Part shown: positions 1-7,168 of the stretch, piece by piece
How positions within the stretch are numbered: the first letter of the stretch is position 1
Layout of the letters: every line of letters begins with the position of its first letter
Source: a virus
Taxonomy: Duplodnaviria; Heunggongvirae; Uroviricota; Caudoviricetes
Length of the DNA: 7,168 bases
IMG/VR virus record: IMGVR_UViG_2541047698_000013
Strand: one strand, 5' to 3'
The notes under the pieces: model-generated
Seen by the model: only the letters and a program-made list of their open reading frames with translations
Told to the model about the DNA's origin: nothing
Database searches by the model: none
Position numbers and translations under genes: made by a program

Positions 1-801
1 ATGCCACTGCTGGATAAGCTGCGTGAGCAGTACGGGGTCGGACCGCTATGCAGCGAACTGCATATTGCCCCGTCAACGTATTACCACTGTCAGCAACAGC
101 GACATCATCCGGATAAACGCAGTGCCCGTGCGCAGCGCGATGACTGGCTGAAGAAAGAGATACAGCGCGTATACGATGAAAATCACAAGGTATACGGTGT
201 GCGTAAAGTCTGGCGTCAGTTGTTACGGGAAGGTATCAGAGTGGCCAGATGCACTGTGGCACGTCTCATGGCGGTTATGGGACTTGCCGGTGTTCTCCGG
301 GGTAAAAAGGTCCGTACGACCATCAGCCGGAAAGCCGTTGCCGCAGGCGACCGCGTAAACCGTCAGTTCGTGGCAGAACGACCTGACCAGCTGTGGGTGG
401 CTGATTTTACTTACGTCAGCACATGGCGGGGCTTCGTCTATGTGGCGTTCATCATTGATGTGTTTGCCGGATACATCGTGGGGTGGCGGGTCTCATCGTC
501 CATGGAAACGACATTCGTGCTGGATGCACTGGAGCAGGCGTTATGGGCCCGTCGACCGTCCGGCACGGTCCATCACAGTGATAAAGGTTCTCAGTATGTA
601 TCGCTGGCCTACACACAGCGGCTTAAGGAAGCCGGATTACTGGCATCAACAGGAAGTACAGGCGACTCGTATGACAACGCGATGGCTGAGAGCATCAATG
701 GTCTTTACAAAGCGGAGGTAATACACCGTAAGAGCTGGAAAAACCGTGCAGAAGTGGAACTGGCCACACTCACGTGGGTGGACTGGTATAACAATCGATG
801 A
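1..801 (+). CDS. IS629-like transposase OrfB (DDE, integrase-type catalytic domain); ends at an in-frame TGA (799-801), with family-conserved C-terminal sequence continuing in the same frame to the next stop at 886-888
   Basis: 266-aa ORF from the track. DDE motif spacing is typical of the IS3 family. The ATG at 1 is probably not the natural initiation site, because IS3-family OrfB is normally made as an OrfAB fusion by -1 frameshifting from an upstream orfA that is outside the window. Confidence 0.88.
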   Translation: MPLLDKLREQYGVGPLCSELHIAPSTYYHCQQQRHHPDKRSARAQRDDWLKKEIQRVYDENHKVYGVRKVWRQLLREGIRVARCTVARLMAVMGLAGVLRGKKVRTTISRKAVAAGDRVNRQFVAERPDQLWVADFTYVSTWRGFVYVAFIIDVFAGYIVGWRVSSSMETTFVLDALEQALWARRPSGTVHHSDKGSQYVSLAYTQRLKEAGLLASTGSTGDSYDNAMAESINGLYKAEVIHRKSWKNRAEVELATLTWVDWYNNR

Positions 802-905
802 TTGCTGGGAAGGCTGGGCCATACTCCTCCGGCAGAAGCAGAAAAAGCTTATTATGCTTCCATCGGAAACGATGATCTGGCAGCCTGAGTTCACAGATAA
901 AACAC

Positions 906-930
906 TCTCCAGGAAACCCGGGGCGGTTCA
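906..930 (+). repeat. Right terminal inverted repeat of the IS element (inner boundary approximate)
   Basis: Terminal sequence ...CTCTCCAGGAAACCCGGGGCGGTTCA ends the element at 930. The left end is not in the window, so the IR length cannot be confirmed by self-complementarity. Confidence 0.5.
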
Positions 931-3720
931 GCGCTAAGAAATCTTGAACAACAGCAGGATGAACTTAATGCTGCGTTTGCATCCGGGAAAATAAATGGTT
1001 CTCAGTTTGAGAATTATAGCCGAAAAATACAGGAAACACGGCGAGAGCTTACCGGAGAGGCTCAGGCAGAGCGAGAAGCAGCAAAAGCGCATGATGAACA
1101 GGTTGCTGCTTTGCAACGTCTGATTGCTCAACTTGACCCTGTCGGAACTGCTTTTAATCGTCTGGTAGAACAACAGAAACAGCTCAATGAAGCAAAAGCT
1201 AAGGGGATGCTCTCTCCTGAAATGTATGAGGAACTTTCTGGAAAACTTCGTGCTATGCGGAGTGAGCTTGAGGTTACTCAATCTCAATTAAGCAAAACCG
1301 GAATGTCGGCAAAACAAACGGCTTTTGCTATGCGCATGTTGCCTGCACAAATGACGGATATTGTTGTTGGGTTGTCCACTGGTCAGTCGCCTTTTATGGT
1401 GTTAATGCAGCAGGGCGGCCAGCTAAAAGATATGTTCGGTGGGATTGGCCCGGCGATCAAAGGTGTTGGTTCTTATGTGCTGGGATTAATTAATCCTTTT
1501 ACCCTGGCCGCAGCAGCCGTTGGCGTCTTAGGGCTGGCTTACTATAAAGGCTCTCAGGAGCAGGACGAATTTAATAAGTCTCTTATTCTTACCGGAAATC
1601 AGTTGGGGACAACCAGCGGGCAATTGGCCGATATAGTTCAACGTGCCGGGAATGCGGCTGATTCGACAACTGGCGCTGCGGCGGCAGTATTAAACCAGCT
1701 TGTGCGTTCGGGAAAGGTAGCGAGCAGTTCGCTGGAGCAAGTGACGACAGCGATAGTAAAAACGAGCGAAGTAACAGGAATATCAACCGAACAACTGGTT
1801 AATGACTTCAATGAAATTGCAAAGGATCCTGTCAGTGCCATATCAAAACTTAATGATCAGTACCATTTTCTGACAATTGCGACTTATAACCAGATTAAGG
1901 CGCTACAGGATGAAGGGAACCAGCAGGAGGCCGCCCGCATTGCGACAGAAGCATACTCATCCTCAATGATCCAGCGCACCAACCAGATTAAAGAAAATCT
2001 TGGTTATCTTGAGACTGCATGGAAAGCTGTCGCAGACTCCGCAAAATGGGCATGGGATTCCATGCTGGATATTGGCCGTGAGGCCTCCCTTGATCAAAAA
2101 ATCTCAGATGTTCTCCGTCAAATTGATGAAATAGAAAAAAATACCCGACCCGGAGTTTTCGGGTTAGGTGGCATTGGAGATGGCGGAGCTCAAAATAAAA
2201 GGCTGGCACGATTAAAGCAGCAATTGGGCGTACTTCAAGCAGAAAAAATTGCTCAGGACGTACTAAATTCATCAATAAACGATTACAACAAGCGACAACA
2301 GGAAGGAATTGAACTCAGACAGAGAGCAGATGCCTTTTCAAAACAATATCAGACCCGGGAGCAGCAGAGAGCTAGTGAACTTGCAAAACTGGAAAAACTA
2401 AAGAGTCAGTATTCAAAGGAAGAATATAATAATCTTATCGCTCAAATAAATGAGCGTTATAAAGATCCAAAGCAACCAAAGGCGAAAGGTTATTCGGATG
2501 ATGCTGCCCAACGAATGATTGATCATCTGAATCAACAGAATGCGTTACTAAGTTCACAAACTGAATTAACCGTTAAATTAAGTTCCTCTGAACAGGAACT
2601 GGTTAAGTGGCGTCAGCAGATTGCCGACCTGGAGTCACGACCGTCATCGAAATTAACCAAGGATCAGAAATCGCTTCTCTTACACCGGGAAGAAATAACC
2701 GCGTTGATGGAGAAAAATGTTGCGATTGAAAAAAATAACAGGCTAATCAAGGAATCCGCCGAAATAGCTGCATGGCGTGATTCATTGCAGGCTTCGATTG
2801 ATAATCGTCAACAGGGGTATGATATTCAGATTGCTGGTTATGGGGTTGGCGATAAAAATCAGCAACGCCAGCAGGAATTACTGCGGATTGAACGTGAATA
2901 TAACAATCAGCGTCTGCAACTTGAACGTGACTATGCAGATAAATCCCGTGGGATGTCAAATCATGTTTTTCAGGAGAAAATGCAGGCTCTGAATGATGCT
3001 CTGGAACGAGAAAAAGAAATTGTCAGACAGAAAAACGAGCAGCTCGATATTCAGGCAGGAGACTGGGTTAGTGGTGCCTCCCAGGGATTCAATAACTGGC
3101 TGGATGACACTAAGGATATCAGTGAGCAGATAAAATCAACCACGACTCAGATGTTTGATGGAATGACCGATGCGCTGGGTGATTTTGTCACGACAGGCAA
3201 AGCAAATTTTCGTTCTTTCGCTACTTCCGTGATTTCGGATCTTAGTCGAATAGCATTAAAGGCTTCAATTACTGGGATTTTCGACAGCATTAGTAACAGT
3301 TCTTCTGGGGGGATTTTAGGAACTATCGGGAGTGCTATTAGTAAATTTATTCCGAATGCAAAGGGCGGTGTTTATGAGTCTCCGTCATTGAACACGTATT
3401 CGAACGGTATTTATGATTCCCCGCAATTTTTTGCTTTTGCAAGAGGGGCTGGTGTTTTTGGTGAGGCTGGTCCGGAAGCCATTATGCCATTAACACGAAC
3501 TTCCGATGGTTCTCTTGGTGTCAGAGCTGTTAATAGTAAAAGTGGTAATGGAGGCGGAGATATTACCTATGCCCCTGTATACCAAATCACTATTCAAAAT
3601 GACGGCCAGAATGGAGAGATTGGCCCTCAGGCAATAAAAGCACTTATGGGGATGGTTGATCAGCGGGTGCAGGGCAATCTGTTAAATATGCGACGTGATG
3701 GGGGAATGTTAAGTGGCTAA
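931..3720 (+). CDS. H: Tail length tape measure protein (lambda gpH-like), C-terminal portion; 5' end apparently severed by the IS insertion (probable pseudogene)
   Basis: Frame 1 is open from the IS junction to the TAA at 3718-3720, with no ATG/GTG/TTG before the TTG at 1111 (first ATG at 1207); frames 2 and 3 have stops at 935 and 945. The translation carries the conserved tape-measure motif [41 protein letters not shown] (lambda H: [13 protein letters not shown]...QSPWLILLQQGGQVKDSFGG) and a lambda-H-like C-terminus (...[16 protein letters not shown]...[10 protein letters not shown]). The central region is long, charged and Q/E/K/R-rich, typical of tape measure proteins. Confidence 0.9.
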
Positions 3721-4051
3721 TACGGAAGAATTTCACTGGTTACCAGAGGATGGAATGAAAACAGAAAATAAACCATCGATAAAAACTGTAAGATTTGGCG
3801 ATGGTTATGAGCAACGAAGTCCAAATGGACTTAATCATTCTCTGCGCGTTTTCACCTGTGATTTCAAAGTTGAGGCGAATGAACGTGATTCATTTGAAAA
3901 ATTTTTAGCCCGGCATGAAGGCTATAAATCTTTTTTTTGGCGCCCGCCGGGTATTAACAGAAAAATCAGAGTGGTGTGTCGAACGTGGTCAGCGACAGAA
4001 CATATCACCTATACCGATTTTTCGTGTCAGTTTGACGAAGTGGTGATCTGA
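3713..4051 (+). CDS. M: Minor tail protein M (lambda gpM-like)
   Basis: 112-aa ORF with ...[16 protein letters not shown]...[16 protein letters not shown]...FDEVVI, matching lambda M (...VRFGDGYSQRAPAGLN...FLEEHGGWKSFLWTPP...FEQVVN). The GTG start at 3713 overlaps the H stop (GTGGCTAA). An alternative ATG at 3755, preceded by GAGGA, would give MKTENKP..., which resembles the lambda M N-terminus MKTFRWK. Confidence 0.85.
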
Positions 4052-4749
4052 TGCAGGACATACAACAGGAAACGCTGAATGAATGCATTCGTGCGGAGCA
4101 GTCGGCCAGCGTGGTGCTCTGGGAAATCGACCTGACAGAGGTAGGCGGGGATCGCTACTTTTTCTGTAATGAGCAGAACGAAAAAGGTGAGTCTGTCACC
4201 TGGCAGAGTCGGCAGTATCAGGCCTATCCCATTCAGGGGAGTGGATTTGAGATGAACGGCAAGGGCAGTGCTGCCCGTCCGACACTGGCGGTCTCTAACC
4301 TGCACGGCATGATCACCGGGATGGCGGAAGATCTGCAGAGTCTGGTCGGCGGAACGGTGGTCCGGCGTAAGGTTTACGCCCGCTTTCTGGATGCGGTGAA
4401 CTTCGTCAACGGAAACAGCGAAGCCGATCCGGAGCAGGAGGTGATCAGCCGCTGGCGCATCGAGCAGTGCAGCGAACTGAGCGCGGTCAGTGCCTCTTTT
4501 GTACTGTCCACGCCGACTGAAACGGATGGCGCTGTTTTTCCGGGACGTATCATGCTGGCCAACACCTGCACCTGGACCTATCGCGGCGATGAGTGCGGTT
4601 ATAGCGGTCCGGCGGTCGCGGATGAATATGACCAGCCGACGTCCGATATCACGAAGGATAAATGCAGCAAATGCCTGAGTGGCTGTAAGTTTCGCAATAA
4701 TGTCGGCAACTTTGGCAGCTTCCTTTCCATTAACAAACTTTCGCAGTAA
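4051..4749 (+). CDS. L: Minor tail protein L (lambda gpL-like; tail tip assembly)
   Basis: 232-aa ORF, near-identical over its length to lambda L as I recall it (MQDI.QETLNEC.RAEQSASVVLWEIDLTEVGG.RYFFCNEQNEKGE... ending KCSKCLSGCKFRNNVGNFG.FLSINKLSQ), including the C-terminal Cys cluster. Its ATG overlaps the M stop (TGATG). Confidence 0.95.
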   Translation: MQDIQQETLNECIRAEQSASVVLWEIDLTEVGGDRYFFCNEQNEKGESVTWQSRQYQAYPIQGSGFEMNGKGSAARPTLAVSNLHGMITGMAEDLQSLVGGTVVRRKVYARFLDAVNFVNGNSEADPEQEVISRWRIEQCSELSAVSASFVLSTPTETDGAVFPGRIMLANTCTWTYRGDECGYSGPAVADEYDQPTSDITKDKCSKCLSGCKFRNNVGNFGSFLSINKLSQ

Positions 4750-4754
4750 ATCCC

Positions 4755-5498
4755 ATGACAGAGACAGAATCAGCGATTCTGGCGCACGCCCGGCGATGTG
4801 CGCCAGCGGAGTCGTGCGGCTTCGTGGTGAGAACGCCGGAGGAGGAAAGATATTTTCCCTGCGTGAATATCTCCGGTGAGCCGGAGGAGTATTTCCGGAT
4901 GTCGCCGGAGGACTGGCTGAGTGCAGAAATGCAGGGAGAGATTGTGGCGCTGGTCCACAGCCACCCCGGTGGTCTGCCCTGGCTGAGTGAGGCCGACCGG
5001 CGGCTGCAGGTACAGAGTGATTTGCCGTGGTGGCTGGTCTGCCGGGGGGCGATTCATAAATTCCGCTGTGTGCCGCATCTCACCGGGCGGCGCTTTGAGC
5101 ACGGGGTAACGGACTGTTACACGCTGTTCCGGGACGCTTACCATCTGGCGGGAATTGAGATGCCGGATTTTCATCGCGGGGATGACTGGTGGCGTAACGG
5201 TCAGAATCTCTATCTGGATAATCTGGAGGCCACAGGGCTGTATCAGGTGCCGTTGTCAGCGGCGCAGCCGGGCGATGTGCTGCTGTGCTGTTTTGGTTCA
5301 TCGGTGCCGAATCATGCCGCCATTTACTGTGGTGACAGCGAGCTGCTGCACCATATTCCTGAACAACTGAGCAAACGAGAGAGGTACACCGACAAATGGC
5401 AGCGACGCACACACTCCCTCTGGCGTCACCGGGCATGGCACGCATCTGCCTTTACGGGGATTTACAACGATTTGGCCGCCGCATCGACCTTCGAGTGA
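4755..5498 (+). CDS. K: Tail assembly protein K (lambda gpK-like), with an N-terminal JAB/MPN-type metalloprotease motif and a C-terminal NlpC/P60-type Cys/His peptidase region
   Basis: 247-aa ORF. It contains the JAMM signature H-x-H-x7-S-x2-D (HSHPGGLPWLSEAD, nt 4956-4997) with a conserved upstream Glu (AESCGF), and a downstream Cys (VTDCYTLF, codon at 5115-5117) plus His residues (PNHAAIY, LLHH) consistent with NlpC/P60. It starts 5 nt after the L stop. Confidence 0.9.
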   Translation: MTETESAILAHARRCAPAESCGFVVRTPEEERYFPCVNISGEPEEYFRMSPEDWLSAEMQGEIVALVHSHPGGLPWLSEADRRLQVQSDLPWWLVCRGAIHKFRCVPHLTGRRFEHGVTDCYTLFRDAYHLAGIEMPDFHRGDDWWRNGQNLYLDNLEATGLYQVPLSAAQPGDVLLCCFGSSVPNHAAIYCGDSELLHHIPEQLSKRERYTDKWQRRTHSLWRHRAWHASAFTGIYNDLAAASTFE

Positions 5499-6037
5499 AA
5501 ACGGGGTCCGAAGCCATCCGGGCGCTGGCCATGCAGATCCCGGCATTTCGTCAGAAACTGAGCGACGGCTGGTACCAGGTACGCATTGCCGGGCGTGATG
5601 CAGGTGAAACCGAATTGTCTGCCCGTCTTAATGAGCCGCTGGAAAATGGTGCCGTGATCCATATCGTGCCGCGTCTGGCAGGAGCCAAAAGTGGCGGTGT
5701 GTTTCAGGCTGTGCTGGGGGCGGCTGTTATGGCGGTTGCTATATGGATGCCGGGGGTAGGAATTATGGCGAGTAATCTGCTGTTTTCTCTCGGTGCCAGT
5801 ATGACGCTTGGCGGTGTTGCACAGATGCTGGCCCCTAAACCCAAAACCCCCCGCACACAGACAACGGATAACGGCAAACAGAACACCTATTTTTCTTCAC
5901 TGGATAACATGGTTGCCCAGGGCAATGTTCTGCCGGTTCTGTACGGTGAAATGCGCGTGGGGTCACGCGTGGTTTCTCAGGAGATCAGCACGGCAGACGA
6001 AGGGGATGGTGGTCAGGTTGTGGTGATTGGTCGCTGA
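5396..6037 (+). CDS. I: Tail assembly protein I (lambda gpI-like)
   Basis: 213-aa ORF. The N-terminus MAATHTLPLASPGMARICLYGDLQRFGRRIDLRVKTG and the C-terminus ...TPRTQTTDNGKQNTYFSSLDNMVAQGNVLPVLYGEMRVGSRVVSQEISTADEGDGGQVVVIGR match lambda I as recalled. It overlaps the 3' end of K by 103 nt in a different frame, as in lambda. Confidence 0.9.
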   Translation: MAATHTLPLASPGMARICLYGDLQRFGRRIDLRVKTGSEAIRALAMQIPAFRQKLSDGWYQVRIAGRDAGETELSARLNEPLENGAVIHIVPRLAGAKSGGVFQAVLGAAVMAVAIWMPGVGIMASNLLFSLGASMTLGGVAQMLAPKPKTPRTQTTDNGKQNTYFSSLDNMVAQGNVLPVLYGEMRVGSRVVSQEISTADEGDGGQVVVIGR

Positions 6038-6055
6038 TGCAAAATGTTTTATGTG

Positions 6056-6085
6056 AAACCGCCTCCGGGCGGTTTTATCGTTTAT
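6056..6085 (+). terminator. Candidate stem-loop / weak intrinsic terminator-like structure in the I-J intergenic region
   Basis: AAACCGCC (6056-6063), loop TCCG, GGCGGTTT (6068-6075) form a perfect 8-bp stem, followed by a T-rich but interrupted tract TTATCGTTTAT. It lies in the only sizeable intergenic gap of the operon (6038-6097). Confidence 0.25.
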
Positions 6086-6097
6086 GGAGCATGACGA

Positions 6098-7168
6098 ATG
6101 GGTAAAGGCAGCAGTAAGGGGCATACCCCGCGCGAAGCGAAGGACAACCTGAAGTCCACGCAGCTGCTGAGTGTGATCGATGCCATCAGCGAAGGGCCGG
6201 TTGAAGGTCCGGTGGATGGATTAAAAAGCGTGCTGCTGAACAGTACGCCGGTGCTGGACAGTGAGGGGAATACCAATATATCCGGCGTCACGGTGGTGTT
6301 CCGGGCCGGTGAGCAGGAGCAGACACCGCCGGAGGGATTTGAATCCTCCGGCTCCGAGACGGTGCTGGGTACGGAAGTGAAGTACGACACGCCGATTACC
6401 CGGACCATCACGTCGGCAAACATCGACCGTCTGCGCTTTACCTTCGGTGTGCAGGCACTGGTGGAAACCACCTCAAAGGGGGACCGGAATCCGTCGGAAG
6501 TCCGCCTGCTGGTTCAGATACAGCGTAATGGTGGCTGGGTGACGGAAAAAGACATCACCATTAAAGGCAAAACCACCTCACAGTATCTGGCCTCGGTGGT
6601 GGTGGGTGACCTGCCGCCGCGTCCGTTCAATATCCGGATGCGCAGGATGACGCCGGACAGCACCACAGACCAGCTGCAGAACAAAACGCTCTGGTCGTCA
6701 TACACCGAAATCATCGATGTGAAACAGTGCTACCCGAACACGGCACTGGTCGGCGTACAGGTGGATTCGGAGCAGTTCGGCAGCCAGCAGGTGAGCCGTA
6801 ATTATCATCTGCGCGGGCGTATTCTGCAGGTGCCGTCGAACTATAACCCGCAGACTCGGCAATACAGCGGTATCTGGGACGGAACGTTTAAGCCAGCATA
6901 CAGCAATAACATGGCCTGGTGTCTGTGGGATATGCTGACCCATCCACGCTACGGCATGGGGAAACGTCTTGGTGCGGCGGATGTGGACAAATGGGCGCTG
7001 TATGTCATCGGCCAGTACTGCGACCAGTCAGTGCCGGACGGCTTTGGCGGCACGGAGCCGCGCATCACCTGTAATGCGTACCTGACCACACAGCGCAAGG
7101 CGTGGGATGTGCTCAGTGATTTCTGCTCGGCGATGCGCTGTATGCCGGTATGGAACGGGCAGACGCTG
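6098..7168 (+). CDS. J: Host specificity protein J / tail tip (central fibre) protein, N-terminal 357 codons; continues beyond the window
   Basis: ATG at 6098 is preceded by GGAG with 8-nt spacing. The translation MGKGSSKGHTPREAKDNLKSTQLLSVIDAISEGP... matches the lambda J N-terminus essentially residue for residue. The frame stays open to the window end, which is why the ORF track does not list it. Confidence 0.95.
   Translation, partial: MGKGSSKGHTPREAKDNLKSTQLLSVIDAISEGPVEGPVDGLKSVLLNSTPVLDSEGNTNISGVTVVFRAGEQEQTPPEGFESSGSETVLGTEVKYDTPITRTITSANIDRLRFTFGVQALVETTSKGDRNPSEVRLLVQIQRNGGWVTEKDITIKGKTTSQYLASVVVGDLPPRPFNIRMRRMTPDSTTDQLQNKTLWSSYTEIIDVKQCYPNTALVGVQVDSEQFGSQQVSRNYHLRGRILQVPSNYNPQTRQYSGIWDGTFKPAYSNNMAWCLWDMLTHPRYGMGKRLGAADVDKWALYVIGQYCDQSVPDGFGGTEPRITCNAYLTTQRKAWDVLSDFCSAMRCMPVWNGQTL

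Follow-up and report, generated by a model that had tools for sequence, protein, structure and literature searches.

The stretch of DNA analysed here (the window; 7,168 nt of the IMG/VR virus record IMGVR_UViG_2541047698_000013) carries the right-hand part of an insertion sequence (IS), a long reading frame coding for a phage tape measure protein (TMP) and a series of tail-tip genes (Table 1). The window is an exact substring of the GenBank scaffold KE699060.1 (GCA_000456365.1), positions 10001-17168. That scaffold provides 9.6 kb to the left and 6.2 kb to the right of the IS, across which it is unbroken.

Table 1. Features of the window, with the evidence on which each was placed.
Feature	Position	Strand	Evidence
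ALIL frameshift-stimulating pseudoknot, 3′ part, cut by the window start	1..72	+	Rfam RF01497
IS transposase orfB, shortened to 266 aa	1..801	+	Pfam HTH_21, rve, rve_3; comparison with the DLI.6n copy
IS629-like element (IS3 family), right-hand 930 nt	1..930	+	Gap-free alignment to full copies
Right terminal inverted repeat of the IS	906..930	+	Starts TGAACCGCCCCGGG; first 14 nt identical to the left end; 23/25 match
IS right end/TMP nt 445 junction, one edge of the probable deletion scar	930..931	.	Alignment to the intact gene
Tape measure (TMP) remnant, codons 149-1077 and stop	931..3720	+	Pfam TMP_2, TMP_4, Tape_meas_lam_C
Minor tail protein, lambda M-like, intact ORF	3713..4051	+	Pfam Phage_min_tail (E 1e-31); annotated gene in locus L002 at the same coordinates
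Minor tail protein L, intact ORF	4051..4749	+	Pfam Phage_tail_L (E 1.5e-97)
Lambda K-like tail tip protein (JAB and NlpC/P60), intact ORF	4755..5498	+	Pfam Prok-JAB, NLPC_P60
Tail assembly protein I, intact ORF	5435..6037	+	Pfam Lambda_tail_I; gene call in KE699060.1
Tip attachment protein J, N-terminal 357 codons, cut by the window end	6098..7168	+	Pfam FNIII-A_GpJ

The complete IS is 1310 bp long (KE699060.1 9621-10930), its left end lying 380 nt beyond the start of the window. The right terminus reads ...GGGCGGTTCA, and in eight independent IS copies the same terminus is followed by differing, unrelated flanks. Because these copies share the terminus but not the flanks, position 930, which the earlier note had taken from the letters of the window as the end of the element, is the true IS end. 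Judged by its sequence, the element is IS629-like, as proposed in that note, and belongs to the IS629/IS1203 group of the IS3 family. Scored against a single reference, an O157:H7 copy annotated as IS3-like element IS1203 family, it is 96.26% identical over 1310 nt without a gap; the ISfinder convention for isoforms is 95% identity. It resembles the group in its length (1310 bp, where ~1.3 kb is expected), in imperfect terminal inverted repeats that start TGAACCGCCCCGGG (14/14 and 23/25 positions matching), in its orfA/orfB organisation, ALIL pseudoknot and DDE (rve) transposase, and in its location in a prophage. It differs in being 96.3% rather than fully identical to the O157:H7 copy, in having its closest relatives outside O157 and in a nonsense codon in orfB. 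Of the IS629 copies in O157 genomes, 62% are found within prophages or prophage-like elements (PMC3271280). The link to O157-type genomes drawn in the earlier note is not borne out for the present copy: the closest matches, full copies in DLI.6n (L001), M15 (L015) and two further loci (L006 and L008) that align to the window part at 99.5-99.8% identity with no gaps, come from non-O157 strains.

The coding content is also that of the group, with an orfA (HTH) and an orfB (DDE core) in 0/-1 frames together with the pseudoknot, except that orfB is cut short. The pseudoknot match (58.6 bits against a gathering score of 50, E 2.3e-13) covers model positions 46-117 of RF01497, and the same structure is annotated in RefSeq copies of the IS. 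In the KE699060.1 copy orfA is intact at 108 aa. Compared with the DLI.6n copy, a C-to-T change at 799 converts codon 267 (799-801) of orfB from CGA to TGA. The intact orfB would run for 295 codons from the same ATG to a TGA at 886-888, and OrfB here loses 29 C-terminal residues, including the end of rve_3, the match to which stops at model position 55 of 67. The same 266-aa OrfB is indexed in 95 blocks of the collection searched, and an IS encoding it occurs at five or more differing flanks, in plasmid-like heme-uptake, afa/dra and pap-like fimbrial contexts (loci L003, L004, L006 and L008). At the four sites checked, no target-site duplication borders the IS copies with this allele. Either the OrfB tail is dispensable, or these copies are mobilised in trans, or the allele has spread by recombination between IS elements.

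To the right of the IS, window 931 matches nt 445 of an intact 1077-aa lambda-H-like TMP gene, where codon 149 begins. We take the join at 930/931 as specific rather than fortuitous. Both this alignment and the Pfam domains bear out the earlier identification of the sequence from 931 onward as tape-measure coding. Over the 6238 nt of window 931-7168, only 4 mismatches separate the sequence from the intact prophage of strain 23CRST032. These lie at 3262, 3283, 4137 and 6622, the first two within the TMP remnant and the others in L and J, respectively. The remnant itself is 99.9% identical to the TMP genes of intact prophages and phages, and phage records annotate the same gene as tail length tape-measure protein H. 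Its TMP_2, TMP_4 and Tape_meas_lam_C domains stand upstream of M-L-K-I-J, as is characteristic of lambda gpH-like genes; a complete ORF of ~1077 aa with its own start is lacking here, codons 1-148 being absent.

The TMP frame is open from 901, through 931, to the stop at 3718-3720. The alternative frames after 931 end at 935-937 (TAA) and 945-947 (TGA), and the earliest in-frame ATG, GTG or TTG after 931 is TTG 1111, followed by ATG 1207, leaving 60 codons free of a start; the earlier reading of these frames was correct throughout. No promoter-like site was found in window 700-1400, and visual reading of the 20 nt before TTG 1111 and before ATG 1207 revealed no well-placed Shine-Dalgarno sequence. 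The remnant is without a start of its own for 60 codons and without a detectable promoter, and we treat it as a pseudogene. Exact look-ups of an 837-aa product starting at ATG 1207 and of a 909-aa product with Ile as its first residue gave no matches, and the 909-aa product with Met as first residue was found in three contigs. This last product is the public collection's own gene call, which starts at ATA, window 991, recorded as Met; since the gene so called has no real start, the call is an artefact.

Downstream of the remnant the J frame remains open up to the end of the window. KE699060.1 itself ends at 17169 (window 7169), one base past the window and inside J, and related draft contigs end at window 4088, 4715, 4851 and 6219. 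That the source scaffold and its relatives end inside this module suggests that parts of it are repeated in other prophages of these genomes.

The earlier note had placed the 5′ end of the TMP gene on the far side of the IS, and had suggested looking for a 3-4 bp target-site duplication matching the bases just after 930. KE699060.1 shows neither. On its left the IS is bordered by the Rac integrase gene intR, of which the 3′ 567 nt remain; the gene runs on the opposite strand, next to ttcA and dbpA. This flank translates to IntR residues 224-411 and has a Pfam Phage_integrase match. The bases on either side of the element (aaa-IS-gcg) form no 3-4 bp duplication. A simple insertion of the same IS type into the TMP gene of NCTC9699, used as a positive control, has one (gtc-IS-gtc). 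IS629 normally makes duplications of 3-4 bp, seen at only 21/47 O157 sites (PMC3271280). A left flank other than TMP coding sequence was one of two observations that the earlier note had named as speaking against its own reading, and it is what the scaffold contains; the other, an intact TMP beginning at 1111 or 1207, was not encountered, the intact homologues starting 148 codons upstream.

Both flanks can be followed along the intact prophage locus of 23CRST032. KE699060.1 1-9621 is collinear with the dbpA-ttcA-intR side of that locus (43523 to 33904) at 99.0% identity, and 10931 onward is collinear with its TMP gene (locus positions 358 to 1) at 100%, in the same orientation. As both flanks follow the order and orientation of the intact prophage, an inversion between two IS copies is excluded. 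Between them, locus positions 359-33903 (33,545 bp) are unrepresented in KE699060.1; intR and TMP nt 445, which should be adjacent in an uninterrupted homologue had the IS simply inserted, are this far apart. According to the 23CRST032 annotation, the missing interval comprises early genes (the 5′ part of intR, xisR, ralR, recT, recE, racC, kilR, sieB, racR, ydaS/T/U/V and replication genes) and late genes (lysis, trkG, both terminase subunits, portal, head/capsid, tail terminator, tail tube, ydaY and TMP codons 1-148). What remains on the left, dbpA, ttcA and the intR 3′ fragment, is 98-99% identical to Rac-like loci, and has the Rac-type arrangement of an intR-type integrase next to ttcA. 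The early region typical of Rac (recET, racR, kilR, sieB and ydaSTUV) falls entirely within the missing interval. What the window shows is the right-hand portion of a Rac-type lambdoid prophage in decay, integrated at the ttcA attachment site; the locus is a remnant and not a complete prophage.

The single IS629-like element is very probably a deletion scar that joins the 3′ part of intR to TMP codon 149, with a predicted loss of ~33.5 kb. The two junctions, the missing duplication, the collinearity and the size of the gap are read directly from the alignments; the order of events and the molecular route we infer. IS629-mediated deletions are documented (PMC3271280). Provided that a deletion occurred, we would favour, somewhat cautiously, a route in which an IS copy in intR recombined homologously with a second, directly oriented copy in TMP. 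We lean this way because contigs elsewhere stop at TMP nt 443/444 and at the intR site, a suggestive pattern that strains with an IS at each of these places would produce. A lone IS copy may have given the same product by one-ended intramolecular transposition (adjacent deletion), which is the less likely route.

Other histories of this junction have to be weighed against such a deletion. Were the IS simply inserted into the TMP gene, as first proposed, the 5′ 444-447 nt of the gene would lie directly to its left, together with a 3-4 bp duplication. This has a precedent in NCTC9699, where an IS629-type element sits at ~nt 636 of the same gene with a GTC duplication, and contigs of other strains end at TMP nt 443/444. 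However, the left flank in KE699060.1 is intR next to ttcA, with no duplication. Moreover, the predicted read-through products of TMP residues 1-149 and the IS are absent from a collection of 15 billion proteins, and the predicted junction DNA is absent from the collections scanned, an exact scan for a duplication-less left junction of TMP nt 444 and the IS giving no match in GTDB species representatives and JGI metagenomes. A simple insertion is thus very improbable. A scaffold misjoin would require that IS copies in intR and in TMP were collapsed by the assembler, with 33.5 kb still lying between them and a separate duplication for each copy. The IS is multicopy, related short-read contigs break at it, and other drafts have clusters of contig ends at both breakpoints, some of these drafts retaining interior prophage DNA; the adjacency of the two junctions is known from one draft scaffold crossing this 1.3-kb multicopy repeat. 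Against this, KE699060.1 is unbroken across the IS with long flanks on both sides, and the places listed for a 148-aa N-terminal TMP partial do not include the source assembly. We consider a misjoin improbable, and were it true, the prophage integrase and TMP would be disrupted all the same.

A different objection concerns not the deletion but its effect, namely that a shortened, functional TMP might be expressed from TTG 1111 or ATG 1207 by read-out from the IS. The frame is indeed open over 901-3720, and the tail-tip genes that follow it are intact, with 99.9% identity to their counterparts in active relatives. Yet the region 700-1400 offers no promoter-like site and neither start codon has a well-placed Shine-Dalgarno sequence by visual reading, the intact homologues are all 1077 aa long, and the tube, terminator and head genes required for any tail are deleted. 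A working shortened protein is therefore scarcely credible.

Returning to the deletion, its probable consequences for the prophage are severe. Because the integrase N-terminus and the excisionase, immunity, replication, lysis, packaging, head, tube and terminator genes are gone, the remnant is predicted to be unable to excise, replicate, lyse its host or build heads or tails. The earlier note had held that a split TMP gene makes the prophage defective. The defect stands, the TMP gene having lost its start and 148 codons, but the split is not its only cause, since ~33.5 kb has gone as well. The defect therefore exceeds the initial proposal, almost every early, lysis, head and proximal tail gene being lost. 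The deletion is probably recent, because the remaining 6.2 kb differs from the intact relative by only 4 bases. For annotation, the locus is best described as a Rac-type remnant in which a 5′-truncated TMP pseudogene and an intR pseudogene are joined by one IS629-like element; the label of an IS-interrupted but otherwise complete prophage is inappropriate. This is ordinary IS-driven prophage decay, in which every component and process is of an already known kind. The locus offers a clean, recent example of it, with little importance beyond annotation, and the junction could serve as a clonal marker of the lineage in which it occurs.

Among prophages at ttcA, Rac is the classic cryptic one. The Rac prophage of K-12 shares with the present locus the ttcA-side attachment site and the integrase, and is likewise a defective remnant that keeps a TMP fragment; it is of the same family as the intact relative with recET, racR, kilR, sieB, trkG and ydaY. 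In K-12-type records ynaA covers TMP nt 245-644, spanning the present breakpoint. K-12 Rac keeps its early region, whereas the present locus is without the early region and the 5′ part of TMP but keeps M, L, K, I and J.

IS629-type elements have also struck Rac-like prophages of other strains, in independent events. In DLI.6n (L001 5621-6930) the IS lies between the truncated recE and the truncated tail terminator gene, and in M15 (L015 5621-6930) between a truncated ydaU and TMP nt 1390; both are deletion scars with no duplication, and their breakpoints differ from the present ones. The match of DLI.6n to the window is a composite of three pieces with the IS at different positions. The NCTC9699 prophage (L013 4191-5500) has the simple insertion described above, again at a different breakpoint. 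In all three strains the IS629-type element, of the same or a closely related type, is oriented as the tail genes. DLI.6n has in addition a second, different IS3-family element inside its TMP gene (L001 11043-12271), and M15 a further IS in J.

Lastly, we looked for the breakpoints in other assemblies. Queries of 300 nt spanning either junction found neither of them among 5426 complete E. coli genomes, a point in which the present element again stands apart from known IS629/IS1203 copies, and an exact scan of GTDB species representatives and JGI metagenomes for the real right junction gave no match. In draft assemblies, two contigs (L017 and L018) carry 54 and 76 nt of the IS end followed by the sequence from 931 onward with no mismatch, two more (L035 and L036) begin at window 933 and 932, and another two (L037 and L040) end 1-4 nt before the boundary of intR and the IS, with 0-1 mismatch to the source flank in 3 kb. 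Because draft assemblies repeat the junctions or breakpoints, the scar appears to mark a small clone rather than one assembly. In three TPA assemblies the accessions of the IntR and TMP partial proteins are neighbours, an indication that these genomes contain both breakpoints. When N-terminal IntR partials with residue 223 as their last were sought, the sole match was a cluster representative that runs to residue 233.

A further 22 draft contigs, from other strains, contain head and tail genes and TMP nt 1-443/444 and end there, so that in some strains the interior DNA is evidently retained beside a repeat at the TMP nt 444 site. Contigs L020-L029 end at TMP nt 443/444, and L037-L049 end in intR at KE699060.1 9614-9619; they come from many samples. 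The ends on the intR side occur in two backgrounds, the source clone and a ~2%-diverged one whose ttcA-dbpA allele is of the E. coli B/C type. Duplication of the 5′ part of intR in E. coli B was considered as the cause of the ends in the second lineage but offered no explanation, BL21 having one intact intR. The pile-up of contig ends could reflect an insertion hot spot, a two-IS variant of Rac or an assembler effect. Given that the intR ends of many contigs fall within 1-6 nt of the same intR position in at least two backgrounds and that 22 contigs stop at TMP 443/444, the breakpoints may be recurrent: a Rac variant with IS629-type copies at two preferred target sites might be widespread and collapse repeatedly to a one-IS scar; we consider this unlikely, if worth bearing in mind.

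Two candidate breaks near the present one were set aside. P0001 (153 aa) is really a 1-nt insertion in a poor Logan contig, and P0002 marks a deletion junction at TMP nt 455 that has no relation to the present one. A junction at this position, 10 nt from the present breakpoint and in another lineage, is seen in GCA_013357225.1 (L030 6001-6579), where the 5′ part of TMP is joined to chromosomal genes for an ABC transporter, Usp and a porin. The complete genome NZ_AP025209.2 also breaks at about TMP nt 452.
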